64,000 bases of DNA from an uncultured Acidimicrobiaceae bacterium (GCA_963807575.1 CAWECD010000017.1:125176-189175); one strand, 5' to 3'; numbered from the stretch's first letter, positions 24,817 through 62,530 are shown. The notes: generated from the sequence alone by a model not told the origin. Numbers and translations are program-made.

Positions 24817-24867
24817 CCCTCTGTTGGTCGGTACGGTCGCGAGACCGACTAGGCTCACCGGCCGGAC

Positions 24868-25562: not shown

Positions 25563-25704
25563 CCGCGACTACAACTCGCGGCCAGGCTCTGCGCGCCGCC
25601 GTAGCTCCCTGAGTACCCGCGCGGTCTGACCGCAGGGGGGCGAGCCGGGAGGGCAGTCCGAGGGGGCGACCCGGCCGTCCGGCCGTAGGGCTGCTGGCCG
25701 CCTC

Positions 25705-25895
25705 TGCTACCCTTCGTTGCGACGGCTTCGGCCGTCTCGCTGCCTACAGGGGAAGTCCGGTCAAACTCCGGCGCTGGCCCGCAACCGTAGGCGAGGCTCG
25801 TCCTCGCAAGCCGGGAAACCTGTCGGTGGCGAGTCCTACTAACCGTCGAGGAAAGCGGGGACTGGGAACCGGTACGGCAGCGGTGTCCCAGCGCT
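25705..25895 (+). promoter_or_regulatory. cobalamin (B12) riboswitch-like leader
   Basis: AGGGGAAGTCCGGTCAAACTCCGGCGCTGGCCCGCAACCGTAGG and downstream GGGGACTGGGAACCGGTACGGCAGCGG match the conserved core (GGGAA / GGTG-AA-CC / CCCGC-ACTGT) and B12-box region (GCCACTG ... GGGAAGG) as I remember them; located in 5' leader of the operon starting at 25929. Confidence 0.7.
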
Positions 25896-27810: not shown

Positions 27811-28908
27811 ATGCTGAGAACCCGCCTCCAGCCGCTGCACCCGATCGCCTGGTGGTGCTGGGCCGGGGCCCTGGCCGTCGCCGCCAGCCGCACGACAGAC
27901 CCGCTCCTGCTCGGTCTCATCCTCGCAGTGGTGGCCTGGGTCGCGACCACACGGCGCGGCAACAGTCCCTGGGCACGCTCGTTCGGCACGCTCATGCGAC
28001 TTGGGCTAGTTGTCATCGTCATCCGAGTCGTCGTCCAAGTCCTGTTCGGTGACCGGGTGCCGGGCGCCACGTGGTTCAGCCTTCCCGAAATCCCACTGCC
28101 CTCATGGACCGCCGGTGTGACAATCGGAGGGCCCGTGACGGCTCAAGCAGTTATCGGGGCGTTCTGCCAGGGCCTGCAAATCGCAGTGATCCTGGCTTGT
28201 TTCGGCGCTGCCAACTCCCTGGCGAGCTCGTTCCGGCTCTTGCGTTGCGTGCCGGCGGGCCTGTACGAGGTGGCCGTGGCGGTGACCGTGGCGATCTCGT
28301 TCACGCCACAGGTCGTGGTATCAATTGCCCGAGTCCGAGACGCCCGGCGCTTGAGGGGCCGGGGCACGACCGGCCTGAAGGGTTGGCGTGGCCTGGCGGT
28401 GCCGGTTCTCGACGGCGCACTCGAGCGCTCGGTCGCATTGGCGGCTTCAATGGACGCCCGTGGGTTCGGGCGACGCTCCACTTCGCCAAGGCGCCGGCGG
28501 GCCACCGCGGCGGCGACACTCGGGGGTCTCGTCGGGCTTGGCATAGGACTGTTCGAGGTGCTCGACTCCGGCTCGGCTTCGGGAATCGGGCTTGCCGTCG
28601 TCCTGGTCGGAGGCGCCCTCGTCTTGGGGGGCCTCGTCGCCTCATCGCACGGCTCGAGGAGTCGTTACCGGCCCGATCGCTGGCATGTCGCCGAATGGCT
28701 CGTCGTGGCGGCGGGGCTCGCGGCCGTTGCCGGGATCGTGGCAGCAGGCAGCAACGACCCGAGCGCGCTCGTGCAGCCTCTTTATCCCCTCGCGCTGCCG
28801 CAGGGCCCGGCCGTTGCGCTGGCCGGCATCCTCGTCGCCACCGCGCCATCTGCCGTCGCACCGGTGCCGGCGACGGGGCACACCGAGCTCAAAGAGGCCT
28901 GGGCGTGA
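27811..28908 (+). CDS. energy-coupling factor transporter transmembrane protein EcfT (CbiQ family)
   Basis: Multi-TM protein with CbiQ-like layout and the Arg-rich coupling helices (VRDARRLRGRG). Confidence 0.8.
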   Translation: MLRTRLQPLHPIAWWCWAGALAVAASRTTDPLLLGLILAVVAWVATTRRGNSPWARSFGTLMRLGLVVIVIRVVVQVLFGDRVPGATWFSLPEIPLPSWTAGVTIGGPVTAQAVIGAFCQGLQIAVILACFGAANSLASSFRLLRCVPAGLYEVAVAVTVAISFTPQVVVSIARVRDARRLRGRGTTGLKGWRGLAVPVLDGALERSVALAASMDARGFGRRSTSPRRRRATAAATLGGLVGLGIGLFEVLDSGSASGIGLAVVLVGGALVLGGLVASSHGSRSRYRPDRWHVAEWLVVAAGLAAVAGIVAAGSNDPSALVQPLYPLALPQGPAVALAGILVATAPSAVAPVPATGHTELKEAWA

Positions 28909-30536
28909 TCGCCTTCGACCGCGTCACGGTCACCTACCCCGGTGCCGGCGCACCCGTCCTCGCGAACGTGAGCTTGGAGATCGAAGAAGGTCATCTTGCC
29001 CTCGTCATAGGCGCGACGGGTTCGGGGAAGTCGACGGTGCTGCGCTGCGTCAACGGCCTCGTCCCTCATTTCTCCGGCGGCCGGCTCAACGGGACCGTGA
29101 CCGTCGACGGGCGCAGCACCGAGCAGTACCGTCCCCGCGACCTGGCCGATGCCGTCGGTTACGTCGGCCAGGACCCTGATGCGACCTTCGTCGCCGACAC
29201 GGTCGAAGACGAGCTCGCATATGCCATGGAGAACCTCGGCGTGGACCCGGCGACGATGCGACGGCGGGTCGAAGACGTGCTGGACACCTTGAACCTGCAC
29301 GCACTGCGCCACCGGGCCATCACGACGCTATCGGGCGGTCAGCGCCAGCGCGTCGCCATCGGCGCCGCGTTCACCGCCGCGCCTCGCACCCTCGTGCTCG
29401 ACGAGCCGACGTCATCGCTCGACCCCGTCTCGGCCGAGGAAGTGCTGGCGTCACTCGCACGCCTCGTCCACGACCAGGGCACGACCATCCTCGTCGCCGA
29501 GCACCGTCTCGAGCGCATCGTGCAGTTCGCGGACATCGTCGTCGAGCTCGGTACCGCTCCTGGTGGGGTCCGTAGCGGCACGCCGGGCGCCGTCTTCGCC
29601 ACGGCGGAGCTGGCGCCGCCGGTCGTCCGTCTTGCCCGTGTCGCCGGATGGTCGCCCGTCCCGCTCTCGGTGCGAGACGCGCGCCGCCATGCCCCCGAGC
29701 TCCGGCACCGCCTCGAGCCAAGGACGCGCCCGCCGGCTCCCGCGTCCCGAGGTGACCGCGTCGCCAGGGTGAAGGGCCTCACCGCCTCCTACGGGCCAAT
29801 CCCGGCACTGGCGGAGGTGACCGTCGATCTCCACCAGGGTGAAGTGGTCGCAGTCATGGGAAGAAACGGAGCCGGGAAGTCCACCCTCCTCCACCATCTC
29901 GTCGGGCTTCGCCGCCCCCAGCGAGGCTCGGTGGAAGTCCTTGGCCGCGCGCCGGGTGAGCTCGCCGCGTCCGAGGCCATCCGGCTCGTCGGTCTCGTGC
30001 CCCAGGACCCCGGGGCGCTGCTGTGTGCCGAGACCGTGGCAGCCGAATGCCGAGACGGCGACCACGACGCCAGGCTTGCAGAGGGGACGACGCGAACGAT
30101 GCTCGAGTCCATCGTCGCCGGCATCTCCGACAAGACGCACCCCAAGGACCTCTCCGAAGGTCAGCGCCTCGCACTGGCGCTGGCGATAGTGCTGGCGCCC
30201 GAGCCACCGCTGCTGCTGCTCGACGAGCCCACGCGCGGGCTCGACTACGGGGCCAAGGAGCGCCTGTCCCAGCAGCTCCGCCAGCTCGCGGCCCGGGGTC
30301 ACTGCGTCGTCGTGGCGACCCATGACGTCGAGCTGGTGGCCGAAGTTGCCGACAGAGTGGTCGTGCTTGCCGACGGCGAGGTGATCACCGACGGCCCCGC
30401 CCGCTCGGTCGTCTGCCATTCGGCCGGTCTTGCCTCCCAGGTGGCCCGGGTCCTCGCCCCGGCGGAGTGGCTGACGGTCGAGGAGGTCGCCACGGCCCTT
30501 GGAGGGCGGCCGAACGGAGACGGGGCGTCCTCGTGA
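28905..30536 (+). CDS. fused tandem ECF ATPase (EcfA-EcfA')
   Basis: GTG start overlapping ecfT stop (GTGA); two complete ABC cassettes: Walker A GATGSGKST and GRNGAGKST, two LSGGQ/LSEGQ signatures, two Walker B (LVLDEPTS, LLLDEPTR). Confidence 0.85.
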   Translation: MIAFDRVTVTYPGAGAPVLANVSLEIEEGHLALVIGATGSGKSTVLRCVNGLVPHFSGGRLNGTVTVDGRSTEQYRPRDLADAVGYVGQDPDATFVADTVEDELAYAMENLGVDPATMRRRVEDVLDTLNLHALRHRAITTLSGGQRQRVAIGAAFTAAPRTLVLDEPTSSLDPVSAEEVLASLARLVHDQGTTILVAEHRLERIVQFADIVVELGTAPGGVRSGTPGAVFATAELAPPVVRLARVAGWSPVPLSVRDARRHAPELRHRLEPRTRPPAPASRGDRVARVKGLTASYGPIPALAEVTVDLHQGEVVAVMGRNGAGKSTLLHHLVGLRRPQRGSVEVLGRAPGELAASEAIRLVGLVPQDPGALLCAETVAAECRDGDHDARLAEGTTRTMLESIVAGISDKTHPKDLSEGQRLALALAIVLAPEPPLLLLDEPTRGLDYGAKERLSQQLRQLAARGHCVVVATHDVELVAEVADRVVVLADGEVITDGPARSVVCHSAGLASQVARVLAPAEWLTVEEVATALGGRPNGDGASS

Positions 30537-31369
30537 CTGCCACGCACGGCCGGCGGCCCGTCGGTCTCGACCGGTTCGGCTCTTTGGCCATCGCGATCGC
30601 GTCGATGATGGGAGCGGTCGCGTTCGCGTGGCCGCTCTTCATCCCGGCGCGCGCGTCACTGAACCAGGCGCACGCCGGCGATGCGCCCTGGATCGTCGCC
30701 GCGCTCCTGCCCCTGTTGCTCGTGGCCGTGCTCGGCGAGTTCAACTCTGGCGGCATGGACGCGAAGGGCGTCGCCATGCTCGGAATGCTCGGCGCCTGCG
30801 GCGCTGCGCTGCGGCTTCCCTCAGGTGGTGCCGCCGGATTCGAGCCCGTCTTCTTCCTGCTCTTCCCTGCCGGTTATGTGTTCGGGCGCCACTTCGGCTT
30901 CCTACTCGGTGCCCTTACCCTCTTCGCCTCGGCCCTCGTCACCGGTGGCGTCGGTCCCTGGTTGCCCTTCCAGATGATGGCGGCAGCGTGGATGGGTTAT
31001 GGCGCCGGCTGTCTTCCCCACTTACCGGGCCGCCGCGAGCTTGTCGTGCTGGCGGCGTATGCAGCCCTTGCGTGCCTTGCCTACGGGCTGCTGCTCAACT
31101 TGTGGTTCTGGCCCTTCGGCGCTGGGACCTCATCGACCCTCTCGTTCGAGCCCGGGGCGGCGCTGGCACACAACCTGGTCCGTTTCCTGCTGTTCGATGC
31201 CTCGACGTCGCTCGGGTTCGACCTGCCTCGGGCCGCGCTGAACGCCGGACTGCTCCTGGTCGCGGGGCGCCCTGTGCTGGCCGCTCTGCGCCGGGCCAGT
31301 CACCGTGCAGCCTTCGGTGCCCCAGTCGAAGTTGCGCCCCACGCACTGGATGCACCGACGAGCTCCTGA
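30533..31369 (+). CDS. putative ECF substrate-specific (S) component / integral membrane protein
   Basis: GTG start overlapping ATPase stop; ~6 hydrophobic helices, no soluble domain; position and size fit an S component but no family-level match I can state. Confidence 0.55.
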   Translation: MTATHGRRPVGLDRFGSLAIAIASMMGAVAFAWPLFIPARASLNQAHAGDAPWIVAALLPLLLVAVLGEFNSGGMDAKGVAMLGMLGACGAALRLPSGGAAGFEPVFFLLFPAGYVFGRHFGFLLGALTLFASALVTGGVGPWLPFQMMAAAWMGYGAGCLPHLPGRRELVVLAAYAALACLAYGLLLNLWFWPFGAGTSSTLSFEPGAALAHNLVRFLLFDASTSLGFDLPRAALNAGLLLVAGRPVLAALRRASHRAAFGAPVEVAPHALDAPTSS

Positions 31370-37564: not shown

Positions 37565-40500
37565 CTATGAGCAACCACTCGTCGAACCGCAGCTCGGGCA
37601 GGCATAACACGAGCCGGCACGCTGCATGACGTTGCCGCAGGCGTAGCAGAACGGGGCGTCCTTGCTCTCCATCTGTCCCGCCTGCCTCATCTGTTCGGTG
37701 TCACTCGGTCGACGCCTTGCCGCTGTGTCCCCGCCGGCGCCGAACCGCTCGCGATCGGTCCGCTCCGCGTCCCCGTTGTCGACATCCTCGAGCCCGGGCA
37801 ATGTCGGTTGCGTCCGTTCCCCCGTCGAGAGCACTCCGAGCTCGAGCCGCTCGTCAAAGCTCAAGTAGTCGAGGGCCAGCCGCCTGAAGATGTAGTCGAC
37901 GAGGCTCGAAGCCAGTCGCAGCTCCGGGTCGTCGGTGATCCCTGCCGGCTCGAACCGGAGGTTGGTGTACTTCCGGACGAAAGTCGACATCGGAACGCCG
38001 TGCTGGAGCCCGAGACTGACGGCGATGGAGAAAGCATCCATGACACCCGATAGGGTCGAACCCTGCTTGGAGACCTTCATGAAAACCTCACCGGGGCGGC
38101 CGTCTTCATACTCGCCCACTGTGACGTAGCCCTCGCAGTCGGCCACCCGGAAGGCGAAGGTATTGGAGCGACGTTTGCGGGGCAGCCGGGTTCGCGTCGT
38201 AGTGGCAGGGGCGATCACATGTCTCTGCTGCAGCGCACCCTCGAGCTCCGCGATGCGCTCGAGCAGCGCTCCCTCCCGCACGAGGCTTGCCCGTGAGGCT
38301 TCTGACGCGACATCGTCATCGTCGCCCAGGAGCGGTGCGCCGGCACCCGCCCACTTCGTCGTCGCCAGCGGCTGGGCAACCTTGCAGTTGTCGCGGTAGA
38401 CGGCGACCGCTTTCAGGCCCATTTGCCAGGCATCGATGTGCAGCTGCTCGACTTCTTCGACCGTAGCCTGCTCGGGAAGATTCACCGTCTTTGAAATGGC
38501 ACCCGAGATGAACGGCTGCGCCGCGGCCATCATCTTCACGTGACCCAGATAGTGGATCGTGTTGTCACCCATGGAACAGGCGAAGACCGGCAAATGCGCC
38601 GCCTTCAGACTGGGCGCCCCCAGGATGGTCTTGTGCTCGTCTATGTAGGCGACAATCTCGTCGATCTCGTCAGCACTGTAGCCAAGCCGCTTCAACGCGC
38701 GGGGAACGGTCTGATTGACGATCGACATCGTGCCGCCACCGACGAGCTTCTTCGTCTTCACAAGTCCAAGATCAGGCTCGATCCCCGTCGTATCGCAGTC
38801 CATGAGGAACGAGATCGTTCCCGTAGGCGCCAGCACCGTCGCCTGGGCATTGCGCACGCCATAGGCCTCGGCTAGATCGACCGCGGTGTCCCAGGCCTCC
38901 TGCGCCGCGCAGAGAAGCTCGGTCGAGACCTGTTCCTCGTCGATCTTCGCCACCTCGACGCGGTGCATCCGCAGTACGTCCAGCATCGGGCCCGCGTTCT
39001 CATGGAAGCCGGCGAACGGCCCCATTCTCGCTGCCGTGCGGGCCGAGGTCGCGTACGCCGCGCCCGTCATGAGAGCCGTGATCGTCGCCGCGATGGCCCG
39101 GCCCTCGTCCGAGTCGTAGGGCACGCCCTGAGCCATGAGCAGCGCCCCGAGGTTTGCGTAACCGAGGCCCAGCTCTCGGAACCGGCGCGTTGTGTCAGCG
39201 ATCTTCGCCGTCGGGTAGTCGGCGTTGCCGACAAGGATCTCCTGAGCCGTGAACACGATGGTGACGGCCGCTTCGAACCCCTTGGCGTCGAAGGTGTCGT
39301 CGTCGTTCAAGAAGCGCATGAGGTTGAGGCTGGCGAGGTTGCAGCTGCTGTTGTCGAGGTGAACATACTCAGAGCAAGGGTTGCTGGCCGTGATCCGGCC
39401 TGTGTTGGGCGCCGTGTGCCACTTGTTGATGGTCGTGTCGAACTGGATGCCGGGGTCCGCGCACTCCCACGCGGCCTCTGCGATCTGACGGAACAGGCCA
39501 CGCGCCCTGAGAGTCTCGATGACCTCGCCCGAAGTCCGGCTGATGAGATCCCAGTCGGCGTCGTCGAGCACTGCCCGCATGAACTCGTCTGTCAGCCGGA
39601 CCGAGTTGTTGGCGTTCTGGTACTGAACGGACTGGCTGTCCCTGCCATCCAGGTCCATATCGAAGCCGGCCTGTGCCAACACACGCGCCTTGCGCTCCTC
39701 ACGGGCCTTGCACCAGATGAACTCTTGGATGTCCGGGTGGTCGGCATCCAGGATCACCATCTTTGCCGCGCGACGCGTCTTGCCGCCGGACTTGATCGTT
39801 CCTGCAGAGGCGTCCGCCCCGCGCATGAAGCTCACGGGCCCCGAGGCCGTCCCGCCCCCGTGAAGCAGCTCCCGGGAAGACCGGATGTTCGAAAGGTTGA
39901 CTCCCGCGCCAGACCCACCTTTGAAGATCGTGCCCTCCTCGACGTACCAATTGAGAATGGAGGCCATCGAGTCCTCGACGCCCAGGATGAAGCAGTTGTG
40001 AACACGCAGACCGGAGCTCAGGTACTCGCCGCTCTCGGTCTGGATGTCAAAGACGTCCATCTCGCCGACGTCCTCGATCCCTGTGATGTCCAGTCGCCCG
40101 GAGATCTCCCCTTCACAAGAGGAATCGGTCCGGTGCCAGCTCAGCTGGTCCCCCACCTGCAGCTCAGCGGCGGGAACGAACCGGCCGGTATCTTCGCCGC
40201 TCGCCCGCCACACGAGATGATCAGCGGTGACGTCGAGCTGGTGCCCGGCCTTGGTCGTAACGCGCAGCACGTGCTTGCGCCCGTTGGCCTTGACCGCCAC
40301 GATGCGGGTCAGACCATCGGCGTCGAACACCTTCTGACCGACGGCTTCGTCCTCGACGAGGCGCCCGATCGGGACAGGGCCGCCAGGAGTCGAGACCAGC
40401 GCGTCATAGGGTTGGCACGCGGCAGCCTGCTGCGGCACACCTTCAACGCCGATGTTGAACCAGACCGGTGAGTTGAACGCCGCCTTCTGCTGCACGACGA

Positions 40501-40894
40501 GGTGCTTGAGCTCGTCGCTGAAGATGGCCGCCTCGGCCGAATCAACGAAATACCCGTCTTTCAAGCCCCATGCCGTGATCGTGTCCACGACACGGTCGAC
40601 AATCTGCCGCAGCGAGTGTTCCCGTCCCGGCATGCCGACGGTACCTCGGAAGTACTTCTGAGCGAGGATGTTGGTCGCATTCAGGCTCCAGGTCGAAGGC
40701 ACCTCGACACCGGGCTGTTCGAACGCGACAGCCCCGGTGCGGTAGTCGCTGATGCGGGAGTCACGGAGCTCCCAGACGACCTCGCCGTAGGGATGGCGGG
40801 ACTCCGTGGTGAAGTGTCGTCGGATGCCAATTCCGAGGCGCTCTCCTGCAACGGCCATTGAACGGTGCCCTCCTTGGCGGAACCTGTCCACCAC
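37565..40894 (-). CDS. nrdJ: class II (adenosylcobalamin-dependent) ribonucleotide reductase NrdJ, intein-containing, C-terminal zinc ribbon
   Basis: FNSPVWFN and active-site ...AAAC|FILGVED split by intein; long actinobacterial NrdJ form; C-terminal CYACGN...CYACPSCG; true start may be the ATG 12 codons in (MAVAGERLG). Confidence 0.9.
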   Translation of the reverse strand: MVDRFRQGGHRSMAVAGERLGIGIRRHFTTESRHPYGEVVWELRDSRISDYRTGAVAFEQPGVEVPSTWSLNATNILAQKYFRGTVGMPGREHSLRQIVDRVVDTITAWGLKDGYFVDSAEAAIFSDELKHLVVQQKAAFNSPVWFNIGVEGVPQQAAACQPYDALVSTPGGPVPIGRLVEDEAVGQKVFDADGLTRIVAVKANGRKHVLRVTTKAGHQLDVTADHLVWRASGEDTGRFVPAAELQVGDQLSWHRTDSSCEGEISGRLDITGIEDVGEMDVFDIQTESGEYLSSGLRVHNCFILGVEDSMASILNWYVEEGTIFKGGSGAGVNLSNIRSSRELLHGGGTASGPVSFMRGADASAGTIKSGGKTRRAAKMVILDADHPDIQEFIWCKAREERKARVLAQAGFDMDLDGRDSQSVQYQNANNSVRLTDEFMRAVLDDADWDLISRTSGEVIETLRARGLFRQIAEAAWECADPGIQFDTTINKWHTAPNTGRITASNPCSEYVHLDNSSCNLASLNLMRFLNDDDTFDAKGFEAAVTIVFTAQEILVGNADYPTAKIADTTRRFRELGLGYANLGALLMAQGVPYDSDEGRAIAATITALMTGAAYATSARTAARMGPFAGFHENAGPMLDVLRMHRVEVAKIDEEQVSTELLCAAQEAWDTAVDLAEAYGVRNAQATVLAPTGTISFLMDCDTTGIEPDLGLVKTKKLVGGGTMSIVNQTVPRALKRLGYSADEIDEIVAYIDEHKTILGAPSLKAAHLPVFACSMGDNTIHYLGHVKMMAAAQPFISGAISKTVNLPEQATVEEVEQLHIDAWQMGLKAVAVYRDNCKVAQPLATTKWAGAGAPLLGDDDDVASEASRASLVREGALLERIAELEGALQQRHVIAPATTTRTRLPRKRRSNTFAFRVADCEGYVTVGEYEDGRPGEVFMKVSKQGSTLSGVMDAFSIAVSLGLQHGVPMSTFVRKYTNLRFEPAGITDDPELRLASSLVDYIFRRLALDYLSFDERLELGVLSTGERTQPTLPGLEDVDNGDAERTDRERFGAGGDTAARRRPSDTEQMRQAGQMESKDAPFCYACGNVMQRAGSCYACPSCGSTSGCS
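39995..40417 (-). other. 141-aa mini-intein inside nrdJ (no homing-endonuclease domain)
   Basis: Starts with Cys (CQPYDALVSTPGGPVPIG, block A), TxxH block B (VTTKAGHQL), ends ...GLRVHN followed by Cys+1 (CFILG); removal reconstitutes the conserved RNR active-site AACF motif. Confidence 0.75.
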
Positions 40895-45537: not shown

Positions 45538-47418
45538 TCAGTCCGCCCCCGGCACACCCGATTCAGGCTCACCGTCGGGACCGAAGCCCAACGACTTTGC
45601 GAACATCTCGGTGAAGGACCGATGCACCGTCAGCTCCACGTAGCGTACGCGGTTGGCCAGGCTGTCCGCCATCGCCCGACGTTCTCGCGACAACAGCAGC
45701 TGCTGGGCCCCCCGGCCCGCGGCATTTCCCACCTGCCGGTAGCGCTCTCGCCCCACATTCACTAACAGCCCCACGCCTATCGCGCTCTCGAGATCCAGGT
45801 AGGTGCCAAAAGCACCCGCCACAATGACGCTGTCCAGGCTCTTGGCCCCGATGCCGGCCTCTCTCAACAAGATCTCTGTACCGGCCCGGATCGCACCTTT
45901 GGCAAGCTGAATCTCGTTCACGTCAGAACGAGTGAAGACCACGTCGCGCCCATGGCCTGCCCGGCCCGCCGGCACCAGCAGGCAGGTGGGCCCGCTCTCG
46001 GTGCTGCTCACCAGCGGATGACCCTTGACGAGCGACCCTCGCTGGTCGATGATCCCGGCTTTCAATCCCTGGGCCACCACGTCCAGGATGCCCGAACCGC
46101 AGATGCCGATCGGTGGCGCCTTGGCGATGGTCTGCACCTGGAAAGCGCCCCCGTGAAAGCGCACGTGCTCGACGGCGCCGGGCGCCGCCCGCATCCCGTC
46201 ATGAATGTGCGCCCCCTCAAATGCCGGACCCGACGCAGTCGAGCAGCTCCAGATCGCGCCCTTGTGCGACAAGCTGATCTCCGTGTTCGTGCCAATGTCA
46301 AGGGCCAGCACAGTCAGTGTGGTGTCTGCCAGCCCGCTGGCCAGGAGCATCGCCACGTGGTCGGAGCCGACATAGCCCGCGATATTCGGCGGCAGATAAA
46401 GGGTGGCTCCCCCGTCGAGGTGCACGCCGATCTCCTCGGCACGCACCACCATTGAGTCGCTCACGCAAGCGACGTAGGGGGCCTCGCCCAACTGGCGCAC
46501 AGGCAGATCGGTCACAAAATGGTGCATGGCCGTGTTCCCGACCACGACGGCATCGACTATCTGGCCACGGTCCGCGCCGGCTTGCTGGCACAGCTCGCCC
46601 ACCATTCGGTTCAGCTCGTCAACCAGCCTCTCGTGCAGCAACTGTTTAGCCCCGTCAGCGGTGTTCGCGTAGGTGATACGAGTAACGACGTCTTCGCCGT
46701 AGGCCGTCTGAGGATTCATGGCGCCGACCTTGGCCAACGTCTCGCCACTGGCGAGGTCGACCAAGTACCCGGCCAGCTTGGTCGTTCCGGCGTCCACGGC
46801 CAGGCCGAGCAGCGCCCCGCCGGCAGGTTGGACCGAGACGAGCACCCCGGTACCCTCTGGGTGCCTGTACACAGCCCCTCGTCCCCGCCACTGTTGTGCG
46901 CGCAGCCGGTTCGAGCACGCCCTGGCACTCCCCAGGCTGATAGTGGTCGCTCCCGCGCCCGCCTGAGCCAGCGCCTCTTGCAACCGCGTGGTGTCGGCGC
47001 GCAAGTCATGCAGTGAAGGAGGTTCGAGCACCAGATCTACGCCGATGACCGGTGGGTCCAGTGTGAAGTCCACAGCCTGACCTTCGGTCTGCAGACGCTG
47101 TGGGGCACTGAGCGACTCGGGAGGTATTTCCAGGCGGACCGCACCACACACCAGCGCCTGGCAGGCCAGCCGCCAGCCCTCGCCACGCTCGATGGCAGTC
47201 AGCAGGCTCTCTTCCTCGGCGGTCTCAGCGCCGAGCGGGCCGTCGACCGCCCGGACGCGACAGGTGCCGCAGGTGCCCCCCCCGCCACACACCGACACCA
47301 TCTCGACGCCCGATGCCTGTGTGGCCTCCAAGACCGTCACGCCGGGCGCTACTCGCACTCGCCGGCCCACCGGCTGCAGCTCCACGCTGACAAGCGCTGC
47401 GGGATCGGCCTCAGCCAT
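45538..47418 (-). CDS. RACo-type reductive activator of corrinoid proteins ([2Fe-2S] ferredoxin + ASKHA ATPase, DUF4445)
   Basis: N-terminal plant-type ferredoxin CGGGGTCGTC; C-terminal sugar-kinase/Hsp70/actin fold with DAGTTK and DIGTNTE phosphate motifs. Confidence 0.8.
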   Translation of the reverse strand: MAEADPAALVSVELQPVGRRVRVAPGVTVLEATQASGVEMVSVCGGGGTCGTCRVRAVDGPLGAETAEEESLLTAIERGEGWRLACQALVCGAVRLEIPPESLSAPQRLQTEGQAVDFTLDPPVIGVDLVLEPPSLHDLRADTTRLQEALAQAGAGATTISLGSARACSNRLRAQQWRGRGAVYRHPEGTGVLVSVQPAGGALLGLAVDAGTTKLAGYLVDLASGETLAKVGAMNPQTAYGEDVVTRITYANTADGAKQLLHERLVDELNRMVGELCQQAGADRGQIVDAVVVGNTAMHHFVTDLPVRQLGEAPYVACVSDSMVVRAEEIGVHLDGGATLYLPPNIAGYVGSDHVAMLLASGLADTTLTVLALDIGTNTEISLSHKGAIWSCSTASGPAFEGAHIHDGMRAAPGAVEHVRFHGGAFQVQTIAKAPPIGICGSGILDVVAQGLKAGIIDQRGSLVKGHPLVSSTESGPTCLLVPAGRAGHGRDVVFTRSDVNEIQLAKGAIRAGTEILLREAGIGAKSLDSVIVAGAFGTYLDLESAIGVGLLVNVGRERYRQVGNAAGRGAQQLLLSRERRAMADSLANRVRYVELTVHRSFTEMFAKSLGFGPDGEPESGVPGAD

Positions 47419-48067
47419 GGTGGGAGATGTGCTCTTCCCGGTAGTGGCAGGTCGCAGCCATAGAGCAGTAGTCGCAGGACTCGCCGGCGTGCTCTACGTC
47501 CGGCCCGATACCGATCGCCATGGAGGTCGACTTCTTCGGCACCATCATGTAGCCGTCGGTCAATCTGACACCCGCCGAGGCCGCGTCGAGGAGGGCGAAG
47601 ATCTGGCGCTGGCCGCTCGCTACCGGCCAGCCCACCAGGCCCGGGCTCAGGGGCACGGTGGTCTGAAGTCCCTCGGCGTTGGCCCGCTCGTCCACCATCT
47701 GGCACATGGCTTGGCCCAACAGGTCAACCGCGGCCGAGCCGAAGGCGTCAAGAGCGAGCGCCAGGGCCGGGTTCTCGGCGAAGCACGCCGAGGCCGTCTC
47801 CTCGAGCGCGGGGCCGATGGAGCAGACGGCCAGCACTACCGAGAGTGCGGCATGCAGGTGCTCGGCGACGAGCGGGCCGGAAAGATAGCCCCCCTCTTCG
47901 AGGCGGACCCGCTCGTGGCGGAACTCTCTCACCGGGAAGCTCTCGGTCACCACGACCGGGGCCAGGAGGGGCCTACCGGCTGTGACCGCCTGCTCAGCGA
48001 CACCGAGCGCCGATGACCGGCGCCGGCGCACGACCGTCGGGTCCGCGCCAAGTGAGCGCAGAACCAT
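47411..48067 (-). CDS. hypothetical protein of corrinoid-methyltransferase operon (C-terminal CxxC...C..H motif; possibly DUF1638-like)
   Basis: 218 aa, start/stop overlaps with neighbours (translational coupling); C-terminal ESCDYCSMAATCHYREEH. Confidence 0.45.
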   Translation of the reverse strand: MVLRSLGADPTVVRRRRSSALGVAEQAVTAGRPLLAPVVVTESFPVREFRHERVRLEEGGYLSGPLVAEHLHAALSVVLAVCSIGPALEETASACFAENPALALALDAFGSAAVDLLGQAMCQMVDERANAEGLQTTVPLSPGLVGWPVASGQRQIFALLDAASAGVRLTDGYMMVPKKSTSMAIGIGPDVEHAGESCDYCSMAATCHYREEHISHHG

Positions 48068-48105
48068 CTCGGCGTCGGGGCTGAGCGCCCAGTCCTTGAT
48101 CAGTT

Positions 48106-48741
48106 TCAGGCGGCAAGCACCTCTTTCACCAGGCGCACGGCACTGGAGGCGTCCTCCGCGTAGCCGTCGGCCCCGATCTCGTCCGCATACGACTTGGTGA
48201 TCGGCGCCCCTCCGATGACGATGCGCACCTGGTCGCGGAGTCCCGCCGCTTTGATCGCCTCGATGGCGACCTGCATGTTGATCATCGTCGTTGTCAACAG
48301 CGCCGACATCGCCACCACGTTCGCCCCGTCGCGGATCGCCTGGATGAACTTCTCCGCCGGAACGTCCACGCCCAGGTCGACGATCTCGTAGCCCGAGCCC
48401 TCGAGCATCATCGCCACGAGGTTCTTCCCGATGTCGTGCAGGTCCCCCTGGGTGGTGCCGATCGCCACCTTGCCGCTGGATGCCACCCCCTCTTCTACGA
48501 GGTGGGGCTTGAGCACGCTGAGCGCCGCTGTCATGGCCCGGGCGGCCACCAGCATCTCGGGCACGAAGATCTCACCTTCCTCATAGAGCTTGCCCACCTC
48601 GGCCATGGCCTTGATCAGGCCCTCCCGCAGCAAGGTCCCCGCCTCGATGCCGCCGTCCAAGCCCTCGGTCACCTTGGCGACGGCAAGCTTTGCCTGCCCG
48701 TCCACTACTGCCTCACGAAGCTCCTCGATCAACGCCATGGC
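48106..48741 (-). CDS. cobalamin-binding corrinoid protein (MtaC/MtbC-like)
   Basis: B12-binding N-cap helix bundle then Rossmann domain with DxHxxG motif (GDLHDIGKNLVAMMLEGSGYEIVDLG) and SALLTTT; start at internal ATG MALIEEL. Confidence 0.8.
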   Translation of the reverse strand, partial: AMALIEELREAVVDGQAKLAVAKVTEGLDGGIEAGTLLREGLIKAMAEVGKLYEEGEIFVPEMLVAARAMTAALSVLKPHLVEEGVASSGKVAIGTTQGDLHDIGKNLVAMMLEGSGYEIVDLGVDVPAEKFIQAIRDGANVVAMSALLTTTMINMQVAIEAIKAAGLRDQVRIVIGGAPITKSYADEIGADGYAEDASSAVRLVKEVLAA

Positions 48742-48879
48742 GTTCCTGCTCCATTCTCCTGGTGTTCGATGCGGACGTGCACAGCTTCGGGACACGCGAG
48801 CCCAGATCGTCGTCGACCCCGAGCGAGCGGACTTCCCGCGATGTTGCCGCCACACGCGGATGCCTGGCCAAAGACACTG

Positions 48880-50295
48880 CTAGTCGCCGTACTGCTCGGT
48901 CAGTTCGCTTGCCATCTGGGCCCACTGCCACAGGCGCTGAGGCTCATAGCGCACGGTGCTCACGTCTTTCATGATGACCTCGACGACGCACCCGTGCGCC
49001 TTGGTCTTGTCGAGGACGGTCTTCAAGTCGTGCCTGGCCTTGTCGAGGTTCCAGGTGGTCTCGGCGAACACCGCCGGGTTGGGCTTGTGGGAGAACACGT
49101 AGCGGCTGCCCACATTGGCCACGGCCTCGTCGATATTGACCCAGGGGCTCATCGACACCTTGCGCAGGTTGGGCACCTTCTCCAAGATGGCCATCTTGCG
49201 GTGCAGGGGATCGCAGCAGCCGTAGTAGGTCAAGCCGAACCGGCTCATCCACCTCAGCTCGTACTGCAGCGAGAACTCCCAGTGCATGCGCGGCGAGACG
49301 TCGGAGAAGATCTGGGCGGCGCCGCTGCCCCAGAGGTCCTTCGCCCGTACGTGTGCAGGGTCGAAGTCCGGAGGCGGCAGCTCGTGCGTGTAGCCGAGGC
49401 CGCCAGAACCTATCCGGAAGTAGGCGTTGTTGAGCGTCAGCAGGTCCTGGGCTTCAAACTGGTCGAGCATGGCGCAGTAGGCGTTCACGAGCTTGTCTAT
49501 GGCCTTGTGGACGAACTCGGGACGGTCGTAGAGGTCCACCATGGCCTCCTGGACGCCCCACCACCTGATCATCTCGTCCCAGGGCGCGAACCAGAAGCAG
49601 AAACCATTCGCCCCAAGCTTGTTGACCTCGACGACCCCGTCCATGATCTCCGACAGCTGCTCGTGCTGCTCCTCGGATGCCGCAGCGTCATGGGTAATGA
49701 CCGGGACCTTGATCTTCTCGAGGTCGTCCTCATCTCGTATCTGGATGTTGAAGTGCCGGGAGACAACCGAATTCGCCTCGTCGGTGACGGCAATGTCCAC
49801 GTCTTCGGCGATACCGAACGCCGTGTTGTGCACCACCAACGGCGACCACACCACCGGTTCCACGACCATGTCCGCCGCCATGTGCTGCCATTGATAGATC
49901 AGCTTGCGCATCTCCCATTCGTGGTAGCGGCTCCACTCGCTGGATGTCTGCAGGCGCAACTCGCCGTCGACGTCCATCTCGTGCCACGGGACCTCGTCGA
50001 TCCAGACCATCGGCTTGACATGCTTGAGCCCGTTCATGGCACGCCAGCTGGAGGCGGTCTCGGCGTGCCCCGGCAGCGCGGCGATGGCCGCCAGCCGCTC
50101 GCCCAAGTGGCGCAGGACCTTCTTGTCGGCTTCGGTGACCTCTGCGGGGGTACCCGTCAAGGTCCCTCTTCGTGACGGGTCGACCAGCCAGTTTGTATCC
50201 TCCATCGAAACTCGCCCCAATCCTTGGGCTTGAAACGAAATTTCTGCGACCTTACCAGATCCGATCTGAGCCTCAGAAATCGTTATCTGAGTCAT
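48880..50295 (-). CDS. URO-D-fold methyltransferase (MtaA/CmuA-like) with ~150-aa N-terminal extension
   Basis: Segment FAPWDEMIRWWGVQEAMVDLYDRPEFVHKAIDKLVNAYCAML parallels HemE/MtaA SPWTLA...LYxEPELLHxLLDKLT region; operon context with corrinoid protein and RACo. Confidence 0.55.
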   Translation of the reverse strand: MTQITISEAQIGSGKVAEISFQAQGLGRVSMEDTNWLVDPSRRGTLTGTPAEVTEADKKVLRHLGERLAAIAALPGHAETASSWRAMNGLKHVKPMVWIDEVPWHEMDVDGELRLQTSSEWSRYHEWEMRKLIYQWQHMAADMVVEPVVWSPLVVHNTAFGIAEDVDIAVTDEANSVVSRHFNIQIRDEDDLEKIKVPVITHDAAASEEQHEQLSEIMDGVVEVNKLGANGFCFWFAPWDEMIRWWGVQEAMVDLYDRPEFVHKAIDKLVNAYCAMLDQFEAQDLLTLNNAYFRIGSGGLGYTHELPPPDFDPAHVRAKDLWGSGAAQIFSDVSPRMHWEFSLQYELRWMSRFGLTYYGCCDPLHRKMAILEKVPNLRKVSMSPWVNIDEAVANVGSRYVFSHKPNPAVFAETTWNLDKARHDLKTVLDKTKAHGCVVEVIMKDVSTVRYEPQRLWQWAQMASELTEQYGD

Positions 50296-59238: not shown

Positions 59239-59590
<352 letters not shown>

Positions 59591-59614
59591 GATTTTTTCG
59601 ACAAAAGTGCTGAC

Positions 59615-59639
59615 GGGAGCCCTCTTTGAGAGGGCTCCC
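59615..59639 (+). terminator. hairpin following ssrA
   Basis: GGGAGCCCTC-TTTG-AGAGGGCTCCC perfect 10-bp stem just after a T6 run at the tmRNA 3' end. Confidence 0.4.
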
Positions 59640-59990
59640 GTCGCGCCAGGGCTCGCTCGGGACACACCAGGACGCAGGAGCATCGGCGCTTGCGGGCGCA
59701 CGCCGCTTGGGCTCGACCAAGACCGCCGAGCCACGGGTGCCGGGAGACCATTGCGCCGGACTGCGTCGGTCGAACCGTCGAGTGGCGCGGGGAGTAGATC
59801 AATGAATCTTTGGGAGACTGGCGCGAAATCAGCGGTCTCCCTTTCCCGGATCTGGCTGCGGCCGAGGTTCGTGCTAGTAGCACAACCCCGTGGGGAGACT
59901 GCCATCCTTGCCTCCGACCGATGGTCGACTAATGCTTGCAGGAGGACAGAGAACACACAGCGTCGCTTCTGTACCGGAATGTGGGGGGAT

Positions 59991-62530
59991 ATGAGCACTA
60001 GCGCCACGAGAGTGGTGTGGTACCGCTCGCGAACCACGTTCGCGCGCCGGTGGAGCGCCTATCTGGGTTTGATGTTGCTGATCGCGCTGATCGGTGGGAT
60101 TGCCATGGGGTCAATCGCGGCGGCCCGGCGGACGCAGTCTTCTTATCCAGCCTTTCTCGCTAGCACGAACGCGTCGGACTTGACGATGTCGACCTATGGC
60201 ATCGCCAACGCCTCCGCGGCGAGCAACTACTCGCCAACACTGACGCGCGAGATCGCCCGTCTTCCTGAGGTCAAGCTGGTCGAGAGCTGGGTGGGGGCAC
60301 AGGTTGCGCCGCTGGAGCGGGACGGGGCCCCGAACCTGACCGCCCCCATCAACCCGGTCGGCAGCGTCGACGGCCTGTATTTCAATGAGGACCGAGCCAC
60401 CCCCGTCGTGGGTCGGATGGCAAATCCGCGTCGCGCCGACGAGTTCGTCACCACTGCTTTGGGAGCTGAAGCTTTGGGACTTCGCGTCGGTCAGGTCGTT
60501 CCCATGGGCGTCTACACGTCAAATCAGTTCAACTCGCCAGGCTTCGGCACGCCGCGCGTACCACCTGAGCGCAAGATCGACATGAAACTTGTCGGAATCG
60601 TGGTCTTCAACGACCAGGTGATCGAGGACGACACGGACCGTCTCCCGACCGACATCCTGTTCACGCCCGCACTGACCCGCACACTCATCGCCTCCAAAGC
60701 CGTTCAGGGCACCTGGTACGCCATGCAACTCGTGCACGGCAGCCGCGACATTCCCACAGTGGAAAAGGCGCTCATCCGCCTGCTCCCGAGCGGGAGCGAC
60801 GCCAACTTCAGTGTCACCTTGCTCACGGAGACCAAGGTGGAGCGGGCCGTCAAACCAGAGTCGATCGCTCTCGGCGTGTTCGGGGCAATCGCCGCTCTAG
60901 CAGCGTTGGCGATCGCGGACATCGCCATCTCCCGGCAGCTGCGCTCGAGCGATGAGGAGCTTCGGGTGCTCCGCGCGCTCGGTGCCAGTCCGGCCGTGAC
61001 TGTCGCCGACAAGCTGGTCGGAGTCCTCGCCGCGACTCTGGCTGGCTCGCTGCTCGCGGTCGCGGTCGCGGTCGCGCTCTCGCCGCTGTCTCCACTCGGA
61101 CCGATCCGAGACGTCTACCATCCGCCCGGGATCGCGTTCGACTGGACGGTCCTGGGCTTTGGAGCGCTCGTGCTGATGGGGGTGCTGGGCGTGACCGCCG
61201 TGACACTGGCCTACCGAGGAGCCCCCCACCGTCTGGCCACCAGGTCCGACATTGACCCACCGCGCGACTCGAAACTGTTAGAGGTGGCGACCTCTGCGGG
61301 CCTGCCGACCTCCGGCGCCGTCGGGCTCCGCTTCGCGCTGAACCCGGGGCGTGGTCGCGTCGCGGTCCCCGCCCGCTCCGTCCTGTCAGGCGCGATCCTG
61401 GCAGTCGTCATTGTCACGGCGACACTCACCTTCGACAGCGGACTGCGCACGTTGGTGTCAAGCCCTGCACTCTACGGATGGAACTGGAGCTACGCGCTGA
61501 GCTCGGGAAACGTCGTCCCCCCCAAGCCCTCACCGCTCTCAACCGCGACCGTGATGTTGCGGCCTGGGCGGGATACCACAATCTTTCCGTCCAAATCGAC
61601 GGCCTGACTGTCCCTGTCCTATTAGGTGACAACCACGCCGCGGTCGCGCCACCGGTCCTGTCCGGCCATGCCGTCTATAACAACAACCAGATCGTCTTGG
61701 GTGCCGTCACGCTCTCGCTCTTGCACAAACGCCTTGGCGACACTGTCGTCTTCTCCTTCGGCAGCCCAAACACTGCCCCGCTCTACCTGCCTCCCGCGAA
61801 GCTGGTCATCGTGGGCACCGCCACCCTGCCCGCAATTGGCGGTGCCAGCACCTTCGCCGACCACCCTTCGATGGGAACGGGAGCCGTGCTCTCCGACCAC
61901 GTCAGTCCGGCTTTTGTACGCGCTATTCAGAACCCTGACCCCAACCTCAGAGGACCGGGTCTGGTCTTCGTACGCCTGCACAGCGGCGTGAGCTCTGCCG
62001 TAGGACTCGCCGACATGAACCGCATCGCCAATCTCGCCAACAAGGTCTTTGCCGCGGACCCGAATGCTACCGGCGACACTGTCGAAGTCCTCGGCGTCCA
62101 ACACCCGGCTGAGATCGTCAACTACCAATCCACCGGAGCCACACCTGTCGTTCTCGCCGCCGGCCTTGCAGCCGGCGCGATCGTCGCACTGGCTCTCACC
62201 TTGATCGCGTCGGTCCGCCGACAAAGACGCGACCTCGCCTTGTTGAAGACCCTCGGATTCACCACCCGGCAGTTGGCCGCAACCGTTGCCTGGCAGGCTT
62301 CGGCGATCGCCGCGATCGCTGCCGTAGTCGGAGTGCCCATCGGCATTGCCATCGGACGGCAGCTATGGATCCTCTTCGCCCACAACATCAATGCTGTGCC
62401 CGAAGCCACGGTTCCCGCCACCCTGATACTGGTCGCGGCCGGCTCGCTCGTCCTCGGCAATCTCGTCGCCGCCGTGCCCGCGCGCATGGCCGCGCGCACG
62501 CCCGCCGCCTTGGTACTACGAAGCGAGTGA
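59991..62530 (+). pseudogene. FtsX/MacB-type ABC permease with two FtsX domains, reading frame broken at C7 homopolymer (61517-61523)
   Basis: Frame A (59991-61607) is protein-like up to ...GWNWSYALSSGNVV, frame B (61478-62530) protein-like from PQALTALNRDRDVAAW onward and carries the second FtsX domain (LKTLGFTTRQLAATVAWQAS); switch coincides with CCCCCCC run. Confidence 0.6.

Follow-up and report, generated by a model that had tools for sequence, protein, structure and literature searches.

Which methyl group is moved, and from which donor, by a corrinoid-dependent system encoded in an actinobacterium? The question is raised by four co-directional genes, A to D, located on the minus strand at positions 45538-50295 of a window of 64,000 nucleotides (the whole stretch of DNA analysed here) from an uncultured Acidimicrobiaceae bacterium. 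The earlier note had seen in them a module for corrinoid-dependent methyl transfer, with an ATP-dependent activator of RACo type, in an apparent actinobacterium. All four genes were found (Table 1), with a GC content at the third codon position of 0.79-0.86 and a codon-position GC as in real genes. The loci nearest to the window belong to Acidimicrobiaceae and Acidimicrobiales MAGs, which confirms its actinobacterial origin; the related MAGs were sampled from bog, peat and soil. We read the four genes as an operon for corrinoid-dependent methyl transfer and propose, at about an even chance, that A moves the methyl group of O-methylated sugars to B, while C and D repair oxidised cobalt.

Table 1. 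Genes of the operon, with positions counted from the first nucleotide of the window.
Gene	Position	Strand	Product
A	48880..50205	-	441-aa methyltransferase candidate; URO-D/MtaA/MetE fold superfamily; signature Y328-G-C330-C331
B	48106..48738	-	210-aa corrinoid (B12-binding) carrier; cap and Rossmann domains; DxHxxG (DLHDIG)
C	47411..48067	-	218-aa homologue of the MetH reactivation (AdoMet-binding) domain and of TM0269
D	45538..47418	-	626-aa RACo/RamA-type ATP-dependent reductive activase

The partial overlap that had been described for these genes holds for C and D, the end of C covering the start of D over 8 nt (47411-47418), and does not extend to the rest of the operon, where A and B are separated by 141 nt and B and C by 38 nt. 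The reading frame of gene A is open back to position 50295 (471 codons, 48880-50295), the size previously retained for its product. However, the 90 nt located 5' of the ATG at 50205 are AT-rich and resemble non-coding DNA, nearly all close homologues have 441 aa and start at an equivalent Met or Val, and the gene is called as 441 aa on identical public contigs; the start at 50295 is therefore unlikely and over-extends the gene. The start of gene B was placed at 48738, in agreement with a public call of 210 aa, and not at 48855 where the maximal ORF begins. The order A-B-C-D is repeated in three related Acidimicrobiales MAGs (L005, L007 and L092, with 62-95% identity for A) and is partially found in L006, L009, L010, L013 and L089. 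In view of this recurrence, the arrangement is not due to chance.

The core of the earlier description is supported by the domain matches of B and D. In RACo-type activases, inactive Co(II) is reduced to Co(I) with ATP and the enzyme's own [2Fe-2S] cluster. Protein D begins with a [2Fe-2S] ferredoxin domain, continues with a linker and a middle domain and ends in an ASKHA ATPase domain, and its Pfam matches to RACo_C_ter (2.4e-77), Raco_middle (5e-51), Fer2 (8.9e-12) and RACo_linker (3.4e-9) are all above the gathering scores, giving the full RACo/RamA domain set (PF14574, PF17651, PF17650). The [2Fe-2S] Cys motif CGGGGTCGTC and the previously cited segment VCGGGGTCGTC are both present in D. 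The score of D against the NCBIfam AcsV-like model (379 bits) is below the cut-off, as is that against the RamA equivalog. By its domain composition, D is identified as a RACo-type activase, a member of the RACo/RamA family and not an AcsV or RamA orthologue by name. Protein B contains the sequence DLHDIG, which corresponds to the expected DxHxxG motif, and matches the Pfam families B12-binding (PF02310, E 3.4e-26) and B12-binding_2 (PF02607, E 6.6e-20), matches that identify it as a B12 carrier protein. Among the NCBIfam models, those of MtgC, of MtbC and of the pyl_corrinoid subfamily fit B best, with scores far below every equivalog cut-off.

Protein C, which ends in the previously cited motif ESCDYCSMAATCHYREEH, had been left without a family; its profile and its predicted structure relate it to the reactivation domain of MetH. 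Its score against PF02965 (23.4 bits) is slightly below the gathering score of 25, the profile of its family matches TM0269 (PDB 1J6R) with an E of 8e-14, and the 19 top Foldseek matches of its AF2 model (pLDDT 91.5) are all MetH reactivation domains (TM 0.74 with 1j6r), so that the model displays the fold of this domain. C keeps the segments xPG and LT..MxPxKS which surround the AdoMet site of TM0269 and of the MetH domain. Compared with the RxxxGY-type AdoMet motif, P142-G143 is invariant, whereas the position of the Tyr is occupied by Leu, Ser, Asn or Gln and the Arg is not conserved; as the Tyr of the MetH motif is not conserved, the use of AdoMet by C appears uncertain. C also differs from TM0269 and the MetH domain by the invariant residues C198-x2-C201-x5-C207 and C82, absent from both, and by its pairing with RACo and not with MetH. 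The C genes always lie directly upstream of RACo, and this conserved pair is also found without A or B.

Protein A had been described as a URO-D-fold methyltransferase, a reading to be refuted if it failed to match the URO-D/MtaA/MttB families. This reading fails at the sequence level, where A has a partial match to URO-D (PF01208) of 15.5 bits (cut-off 23.9, E 0.009), no match to NCBIfam models and, at E <= 0.01, none to the MttB/MtgB, MtaB, MtbB and MtmB models of Pfam and NCBIfam; A is as distant from PF01208 as from URO-D itself. It stands at the level of fold and profile comparisons, by which A falls in the URO-D/MtaA/MetE superfamily with a (beta/alpha)8 barrel of URO-D type, and gene A, adjoining B, would encode a TIM-barrel methyltransferase candidate of a corrinoid-linked fold. 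In the profile-profile alignment with PF01208-type neighbours, residues 157-404 of A match their residues 144-374, and the N-terminal excess amounts by this alignment to a few tens of residues, including the disordered residues 1-18, instead of the extension of about 150 aa previously described. The homologues of A make up about 800 clusters at 50% identity, and GTDB species genomes of many phyla contain at least 585 stretches that match: family A is a large, unannotated and uncharacterised family.

The signature Y-G-C-C of A is aligned with the H-x-C-G motif of MtaA, C330 coinciding with the Cys that is a ligand of the thiol-activating zinc; the H-x-C...C zinc motif of MtaA-type enzymes is as such absent from A. 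The Tyr replaces the His of the motif in 120 of 125 diverse members of family A, whereas HxCG is kept in 20 of 23 PF01208 neighbours. A has an MtaA/URO-D barrel, the cysteine pair being at the position of the MtaA zinc site. Together with the residues E96, D112 and E409, likewise conserved throughout the family, the signature would fit a Cys2-carboxylate metal site, and the invariant Cys pair seems to imply a metal site that URO-D lacks.

An adjacent Cys pair ligates zinc in the homocysteine domains of MetH and BHMT. By analogy with these domains, and from the alignment of C330 with a zinc ligand, A may be read as an acceptor-side enzyme (MT II) comparable to MtaA or to the MetH homocysteine domain. 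In this main rival reading, which we hold to be possible but unlikely, A would demethylate methyl-Co(III)-B, with homocysteine, another thiol or another nucleophile as the methyl acceptor, the operon would be half of a split system resembling methionine synthase or MtaA, and another locus would encode the donor enzyme, be it MtaB, a PF01208 paralogue or a pterin-binding methyltransferase. The invariant Tyr at the place of the HxC His argues against it, as does the lack of a Pfam match of A to PF02574 (Hcy domain) and PF01717 (MesA-D, core methionine synthase). A split MetH reactivated by RamA-like proteins provides a precedent (bioRxiv 10.1101/192971).

The genes that accompany A bear on the same alternative. 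As the earlier note had observed for MtrH, no second methyltransferase (pterin-binding, MtrH, MtaA-type or Hcy-type) was detected among the scanned ORFs of the 64-kb window, in which A is the only URO-D-like ORF. In L006, a pterin-binding methyltransferase (PF00809) and MTHFR come directly after genes A-B-C. This is the classical layout of O-demethylases with A as the only candidate MT I, which suggests a donor-side role; the same genes can nevertheless be matched one-to-one with the MetH modules and MetF, C being Act-like. In L009, the operon A-B-RACo-MtaB associates A with a known donor-side enzyme and by analogy with MtaABC suggests the acceptor side, as might the single copy of A in loci containing several PF01208 paralogues. 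Conversely, a core enzyme of MetE type lies beside A in L045 and in L035 (Limnocylindrales, with the order MetE-like core, A, DUF1638, corrinoid protein); this enzyme could be the acceptor-side partner of A, and an acceptor-side A would be redundant there. Moreover, a candidate donor methyltransferase is absent from most sugar loci with A, and a biosynthetic methionine synthase is unexpected in loci with fucosidases and transporters controlled by LacI or AraC.

The association of A with corrinoid genes varies among lineages. Of 15 Acidimicrobiales loci, 9 have a corrinoid protein next to A, while in L088, L090, L091 and L093, of the same order, A is alone; outside this order, corrinoid-related genes lie within 8 kb of A in 5 of about 69 loci. 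A could thus be unlinked to B-C-D and act as a corrinoid-independent URO-D-fold enzyme of a sugar pathway, for instance a decarboxylase or another lyase, while B-C-D would be a generic unit that carries and repairs the corrinoid for a methyltransferase of another locus. The loci without a corrinoid gene (about 64 of 69), the C-D pairs devoid of A and B, the gap between A and B and the fact that URO-D needs no cofactor agree with this reading, which we judge improbable. Against it, corrinoid-system genes adjoin A in four further phyla, in addition to the 9 Acidimicrobiales loci, well above our rough chance expectation of at most about 1-2 in 69. In L051 (Chloroflexia), a tight co-directional operon consists of LacI, A, a lactonase, a dehydrogenase, a corrinoid protein and, last, an enzyme resembling MtaA, which is also present in L010 and L089, and 21 of 76 loci contain HxCG paralogues of MtaA type. 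Near A, L057 (Treponemataceae) has RACo, DUF1638 and URO-D genes, L019 has RACo and DUF3786, and L085 (Firmicutes) has DUF1638 and three URO-D genes. The putative metal site of the Cys pair, absent from URO-D, also speaks against an enzyme of URO-D type. Given the 5 loci in about 69, an obligate corrinoid dependence of the whole family A is unproven on present counts.

The substrate had been considered impossible to deduce. This was too pessimistic, since the genomic context of about 90 family-A loci points to the metabolism of sugars (6-deoxyhexoses), and not of aromatics, methylamines or betaines. In a census of 76 loci (+-8 kb), GH29 fucosidases were found in 20 loci, sugar ABC ATPases in 15, Peripla_BP_4 in 11, LacI in 9, rhaM in 7 and sulfatases in 6, and GH95 was also seen; typical neighbours are GH29 fucosidases, sugar transporters, rhaM and genes of fucose or rhamnose catabolism. 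Among Acidimicrobiales, L089 and L092 contain rhaM, a sugar ABC transporter, a lactonase and a dehydratase, L091 contains GH78 and GH29, and L088 an aldolase, Aldedh, FGGY and LacI. In the window, the operon itself includes no sugar gene. About 55 of the 76 loci have no other methyltransferase near A, which indicates that A itself is the sugar-linked element.

This context weighs against A being a divergent MT I of a classical demethylase acting on methoxylated aromatics, methylamines, glycine betaine or other quaternary amines, or methanol, a reading that we regard as very improbable. It is suggested by the four-part layout, similar to that of the O-demethylases of acetogens and Desulfitobacterium, by MtgC and MtbC as best models for B, by the MtaB of L009 and by the origin of the related MAGs, from bog, peat and soil rich in lignin-derived methoxy-aromatics. 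However, catabolic genes for aromatic rings or amines are not recurrent neighbours in any of the approximately 90 loci with A, where sugar genes dominate, B scores far under the equivalog cut-offs, and A resembles none of the MttB/MtgB, MtaB, MtbB and MtmB models, its distance from PF01208, said to include the aromatic O-demethylase MT I (PMC10418091), being as large as from URO-D.

The O-demethylases of Acetobacterium dehalogenans, Desulfitobacterium hafniense and Moorella consist of MT I, a corrinoid protein, MT II and an activating enzyme. The operon shares with them a URO-D-fold MT I candidate, an MtaC-type DxHxxG corrinoid protein, a RACo-type ATP-dependent activase and, beside the module in its orthologue L006, an MT II of pterin-binding type with MTHFR. 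It differs by a protein A outside PF01208 with Y-G-C-C, by the lack of MT II among the scanned ORFs of the window, by the additional MetH-Act-like C, by its host (an actinobacterium of the Acidimicrobiales and not a strictly anaerobic Firmicute) and by a context that points to sugars instead of phenyl methyl ethers. With the methanol:CoM system MtaABC of Methanosarcina, which operates with RamA, identity is 10-16%; A has a Tyr for the HxC His and a second adjacent Cys, CoM biology is not expected, and A is proposed on the donor side, unlike the acceptor-side enzyme of MtaABC.

Aerobic Rhodobacterales possess modular MtgBCD and split-MetH systems with RamA-like and DUF1638 reactivation (PMC12478193; bioRxiv 10.1101/192971). 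These also combine, in non-anaerobes, a stand-alone corrinoid protein, exchangeable methyltransferases and the need for a RamA/RACo-like activase, and MtgC is the best model for B. Their donor enzyme is an MttB-family MtgB and their Hcy enzyme belongs to PF02574, whereas the window operon has family A, and a TM0269-like C where they have DUF1638. The Mlp1-3 proteins of the Type 1 mlp clusters (Kountz & Balskus, PMC10418091) are bona fide members of IPR000257/PF01208 close to MtaA and MtbA, limited to obligate anaerobes, with a proposed role in the metabolism of methyl-sulfur or methyl-selenium; family A is separate, far more divergent and found in a sugar context. The literature searched yielded a single route by which sugars are demethylated, the cytochrome P450 O-demethylase of marine Bacteroidetes, which acts on 6-O-methyl-D-galactose (PMC6292453). 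The role proposed for A is similar, methyl ethers being removed so that sugars can be catabolised, but the P450 performs an O2-dependent hydroxylation that releases formaldehyde, whereas A, of a different enzyme class, would depend on nucleophilic methyl transfer to Co(I).

In the demethylation of sugars that we propose, A would be the substrate-specific donor-side methyltransferase (MT I), with an MtaB-like Lewis-acid site of the Zn(Cys)2-carboxylate type activating an alkyl methyl ether, from which the Co(I) form of B would take the methyl group. Its substrate would be a sugar carrying an O-methyl group, with O-methyl 6-deoxyhexoses, for instance methyl-fucose or methyl-rhamnose, as the likeliest candidates. 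A second methyltransferase, encoded elsewhere in the genome, would pass the methyl group onward; in sister loci, this role may fall to an MtaA-like HxCG enzyme, to a core enzyme of MetE type or to a pterin-binding enzyme accompanied by MTHFR. C and D would jointly repair the oxidised cofactor, D by ATP-driven reduction and C by holding B in the reactivation conformation and/or by trapping Co(I) via AdoMet-dependent methylation or relaying electrons through a Cys4 metal site. If this is true, family A may represent an unrecognised, oxygen-independent route for removing methyl groups from sugars.

The genes A to D form a conserved unit that encodes a barrel of the MtaA fold with a remodelled, Cys-rich site (A, the methyltransferase candidate), a B12 carrier (B), a protein resembling the MetH activation domain (C) and an ATP-dependent activase (D). 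The four co-directional ORFs that the earlier note had placed between 45538 and 50295 are present on the minus strand, with a third-position GC of 0.79-0.86, as expected of real genes at 66% GC. All the motifs quoted in that note were found in the translations, namely DLHDIG in B, VCGGGGTCGTC in D and ...ESCDYCSMAATCHYREEHISHHG at the end of C. The length of A, given as 471 aa, is corrected to 441 aa with the start at ATG 50205; the 90 nt preceding this codon are AT-rich, the start matches an equivalent Met or Val start in nearly all close homologues, and A is called at 441 aa in identical public MAG contigs. The boundary of B is corrected as well, to a gene of 210 aa (48106-48738). The genes had been described as partly overlapping, which holds for C and D (8 nt) and for no other pair in the operon. 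This DNA was also found in soil and peat MAG assemblies, and the attribution to an actinobacterium is right since the closest relatives are Acidimicrobiaceae/Acidimicrobiales MAGs. A scan of the operon for promoters and terminators gave uninformative counts at chance expectation, and no Rfam element, riboswitches included, was detected in or beside the operon.

Coordinates of the features in the window and in loci of other genomes (L-numbers)
Sequence	Positions	Strand	Feature
Window	48880-50205	-	A, 441 aa
Window	48106-48738	-	B, corrinoid protein, 210 aa
Window	47411-48067	-	C, 218 aa
Window	45538-47418	-	D, RACo/RamA-type activase
Window	37565-40894	-	Class II ribonucleotide reductase with TSCPD domain
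Window	25703-25841	+	Cobalamin riboswitch RF00174
Window	25929-27056		Squalene-cyclase-repeat-like protein
Window	28071-30536		Fused double ABC ATPase
Window	30467-31369		ECF-transporter membrane component
Window	24094-24167	-	tRNA
Window	24745-24818	+	tRNA
Window	24868-24941	+	tRNA
Window	59239-59590	+	tmRNA
Window	59415-61607		ORF overlapping the tmRNA
Window	505-2094	+	LarA-like protein
L005	5421-7328	-	LarA-like protein
L006	10887-13633	-	PF00809 methyltransferase and MTHFR
L009	12035-13420	+	MtaB homologue
L009	14319-15446		Not URO-D-like
L027	14078-15397	+	Second family A paralogue
L035	1960-2991	+	MetE-like protein, 343 aa
L045	9339-10364	-	MetE-like protein, 343 aa
L008	6424-7899		Desaturase-Rieske fusion
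L010	4257-5771		Desaturase-Rieske fusion
L092	6478-7923		Desaturase-Rieske fusion
L057	5731-7290		Desaturase-Rieske fusion (tblastn match 5603-7039)
L008	2914-5793		DUF5107 protein
L089	3097-6487		DUF5107 protein
L025	12267-13151		Weak DUF5107-protein match
L094	7001-9534		C-like/RACo pair
L095	2463-4315		C-like/RACo pair

The identification of B as a corrinoid protein is confirmed by Pfam matches to the B12-binding domain (E 3e-26) and to the cap domain (E 7e-20). Of the NCBIfam models, MtgC and MtbC fit it best, with scores well under their equivalog cut-offs, and B is a canonical MtaC-type protein. D, announced as a RACo-like activator, contains the complete RACo/RamA-type domain set (Fer2, linker, middle and ASKHA C-terminal domains; Pfam E down to 2e-77). 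The 218-aa protein C, previously considered as unknown, is assigned here to the homologues of the MetH reactivation domain and of TM0269. PF02965 is its only Pfam match, below threshold (23.4 bits), and the profile of its family recovers from the PDB the structure 1J6R (E 8e-14), that of TM0269, a stand-alone protein for MetH reactivation in Thermotoga. The top 19 structural matches of its predicted model (pLDDT 91.5) are all MetH reactivation domains. The family has in addition the invariant cysteines C198-x2-C201-x5-C207 and a near-invariant C82, which suggest a metal or Fe-S site. In L093, an ORF of 218 aa located downstream of A does not encode a C homologue.

Where distant homologues of C were found without A or B, their gene always immediately precedes a RACo gene, with an overlap between the two; C and D are therefore a conserved pair. 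Overlapping pairs of this kind, with neither family A nor an adjacent corrinoid gene, occur in L094, in L095 and in a JGI contig (sample 3300075153), and one of them lies about 5 kb from an MttB-family gene. Thus, the C-D pair may serve several corrinoid systems. Among the loci orthologous to the operon, L006 contains C without D and L009 contains D without C; the two proteins may represent complementary repair routes.

The URO-D fold proposed for A is below the Pfam cut-off (partial match of 15.5 bits against 23.9), but a profile-profile comparison with the PF01208 proteins encoded beside the family members supports it with 96% probability (E 4e-9). In this comparison, the residues Y327-Y328-G-C330-C331 of A are aligned with the zinc motif Y-H-x-C-G of the PF01208 neighbours, 20 of 23 of which have HxCG; in A, the Cys is retained, the His is replaced by Tyr and an extra Cys follows. 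No NCBIfam model was found with A, and the PDB sequence searches with A (phmmer) and with the family A profile gave only noise (ACMSD, a designed binder). The most conserved residues in 125 diverse representatives are N58, E96, D112, W292, Q298, S304, Y328-G-C-C, R348, K374 and E409. Family A is large and essentially unannotated: it comprises more than 4,692 clusters at 90% identity, virtually all named "hypothetical protein" without Pfam domain, and 802 clusters at 50% identity (E <= 1e-30). In the GTDB species genomes, at least 585 stretches match the family, spread over many phyla. In L027, a Chloroflexi MAG, the main copy is accompanied at a distance of 5 kb by a divergent second paralogue (about 29% identity, 221 bits with the family HMM), which indicates diversification within the family.

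Several assignments of A were rejected. No Pfam or NCBIfam model relates it to the MttB, MtgB or MtaB types; that the substrate belongs to the classical ones (aromatics, amines, methanol) is the least probable of the alternatives considered. The core methionine synthases MesA-D belong to PF01717, and the mlp clusters consist of PF01208 members of strict anaerobes.

On one side, the operon is flanked by CoxG, a CHAP protein, an FGGY kinase and, at about 5 kb, a class II (B12-dependent) ribonucleotide reductase, so that the corrinoid dependence of the organism extends beyond the operon. The genes on the other side (aminotransferase, luciferase-like and SRPBCC proteins) were excluded from the unit because 3-5.5 kb of additional DNA lies between them and A in the close relatives L005 and L013. 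In L005, a LarA-like protein (lactate-racemase N-terminal domain, Lar_N) with a shikimate-kinase-like P-loop fusion is inserted between the aminotransferase and A when compared with the window, which encodes another LarA-like protein. As the earlier note had stated, no MtrH-like gene is nearby: pterin-binding, MtrH, MtaA-type, MetE-type and Hcy-methyltransferase genes were not found among the scanned ORFs of the window. A cobalamin riboswitch (Rfam, 44.8 bits) immediately precedes three genes, and together they look like a B12-regulated locus for corrinoid or cobalt uptake. Three tRNA genes and a tmRNA were also detected; the true start of the ORF overlapping the tmRNA must be located further downstream.

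Beyond the domain and fold assignments, all the claims on the operon rest on genomic context. The neighbours of family A were counted within 8 kb on either side in 76 GTDB loci. PF01208 paralogues (32 proteins, 21 loci) and GH29 alpha-L-fucosidases (30 proteins, 20 loci) are followed by sugar ABC ATPases (15 loci), periplasmic sugar-binding proteins (11), LacI (9), the mutarotase rhaM and MFS transporters (7 each), and sulfatases and AraC (6 each); GH95 and GH2 enzymes also occur. In about 55 of the 76 loci, A is the sole methyltransferase amid glycoside hydrolases and transporters. The neighbourhoods in related Acidimicrobiales are of a similar kind. The locus L089 (A 74% identical) contains LacI, AKR, ADH, DUF5107, URO-D, A and a corrinoid protein, then a lactonase-type amidohydrolase, rhaM, a sugar ABC transporter, an RraA-like aldolase and a sugar-acid dehydratase. 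L092 (A 62%) is composed of rhaM, a sugar ABC transporter, ADH, a desaturase-Rieske fusion, A, B, C, D and an SDR; L091 of a GH78 rhamnosidase, a GH29 fucosidase and A; and L088 of an aldolase, A, aldehyde dehydrogenase, PfkB-GatZ, ADH, an FGGY kinase and LacI. A DUF5107 protein, with TPR repeats fused or following, occurs close to family A in L008 and L089 (both Acidimicrobiales), and L025 (Verrucomicrobiota) has a weak match (23% identical). Fusions of a fatty-acid-desaturase-family protein with a Rieske [2Fe-2S] domain are immediate neighbours of A or of its corrinoid protein in L008, L010 and L092 (Acidimicrobiales), and a version 36% identical is placed likewise in L057 (Treponemataceae); they could act as an oxygen-dependent partner or be alternative demethylases.

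Outside the Acidimicrobiales, corrinoid-system genes adjoin A in only five of about 69 loci. L051 (Chloroflexia) is a co-directional series with gaps of at most 45 bp (LacI, A, lactonase, GFO/IDH/MocA dehydrogenase, corrinoid protein, MtaA-like), with an enolase-type dehydratase and an AKR lying opposite. The others are L035 (MetE-like core enzyme, A, DUF1638, corrinoid protein), L057 (LacI, URO-D, desaturase-Rieske, A, DUF1638, URO-D, RACo), L019 (RACo, DUF3786, A) and L085 (fucosidase, sugar ABC transporter, URO-D, A, two URO-D, DUF1638). Because of this low number, the alternative that A is functionally unlinked to B-C-D gains some support, although we give it only a slim chance.

In the orthologous locus L006 (A 83%), A-B-C is immediately followed by a convergent PF00809 pterin-binding methyltransferase and an MTHFR with a DUF5981 C-terminus; this module has no RACo gene. 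In L009 (A 78%), A-B-RACo-MtaB form one operon. This MtaB homologue is full-length (PF12176, E 5e-157), and methanol activation of the MtaB type was unexpected in an actinobacterium. A single-domain MetE-like protein (PF01717, "core methionine synthase"-like) adjoins A in two loci, L035 and L045, both from Chloroflexota. These contexts bear on the main alternative, where A would be an acceptor-side enzyme comparable to MtaA or to the Hcy domain of MetH. Three observations argue for it: A shares an operon with MtaB in L009, C330 is homologous to a zinc ligand that activates thiols, and L006 resembles, part for part, a split MetH plus MetF. The His to Tyr change in the motif, the presence of MetE-like proteins beside A in L035 and L045 and the setting of A in sugar catabolism argue against it, and we consider it unlikely.

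The best reading is that A is a donor-side methyltransferase for sugar methyl ethers, to which we give about an even chance. It is compatible with every context seen, notably the classical O-demethylase layout of L006, and with A as the only methyltransferase in most loci. By analogy with MtaB and methanol, A would activate the sugar methyl ether at a putative Zn(Cys)2-carboxylate-type site, and the methyl group would then be taken by Co(I)-B. A second methyltransferase, encoded elsewhere in the source genome, would pass it on from B; in the sister loci this role would belong to the pterin-binding enzyme with MTHFR, to the MtaA-like or to the MetE-like protein. D, and C, would bring oxidised cobalt back to Co(I).

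The earlier reading of a corrinoid methyltransferase module with a RACo-type activator is upheld and sharpened. The architecture is that of the O-demethylase/MtaABC/MtgBCD systems, from which the operon differs by family A, placed outside PF01208 and all curated models and having the YGCC motif, by the TM0269-like Cys4 protein C paired with RACo, and by the inferred substrate class. Sugar demethylation has been described with O2-dependent P450 monooxygenases (PMC6292453). The searched literature revealed no other enzymatic sugar demethylation, and nothing relevant on a corrinoid-dependent sugar demethylase or on URO-D-like genes in fucosidase/fucoidan loci. Reactivation by RamA-like and DUF1638 proteins is known for split MetH and MtgBCD in aerobes (10.1101/192971, PMC12478193), and PF01208 mlp clusters occur in anaerobes (PMC10418091); none of these studies covers family A.

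Family A is widespread among polysaccharide degraders of the Planctomycetota, Verrucomicrobiota, Chloroflexota, Spirochaetota, Armatimonadota, Acidobacteriota, Bacteroidota and Acidimicrobiia. With somewhat less than an even chance, it would be the catalytic part of an unrecognised oxygen-independent, corrinoid-dependent O-demethylase of methylated sugars, for instance the methyl-fucose and methyl-rhamnose that occur in pectin RG-II, in mosses and algae and in microbial glycans, and C and RACo would form a new two-protein corrinoid repair unit. Should the sugar reading prove wrong, what remains is a clear corrinoid methyltransferase module, although of ordinary type. The C-D pairing suggests a means of keeping corrinoid proteins active in oxygen-exposed actinobacteria. 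Methyl ethers obstruct sugar catabolism, and the question at stake is how methylated fucose, rhamnose, xylose and other sugars are handled by anoxic or low-oxygen communities of peat, sediment and gut; the interest of family A lies in its breadth and in its testable link to this question of glycan degradation. If A is a corrinoid-dependent sugar demethylase, it would add a new substrate class to the B12-dependent methyltransferases, tie glycan degradation to the economy of C1 units and B12, perhaps also providing methyl groups for THF or methionine, and give a function to a family named "hypothetical protein" wherever a source name is given.
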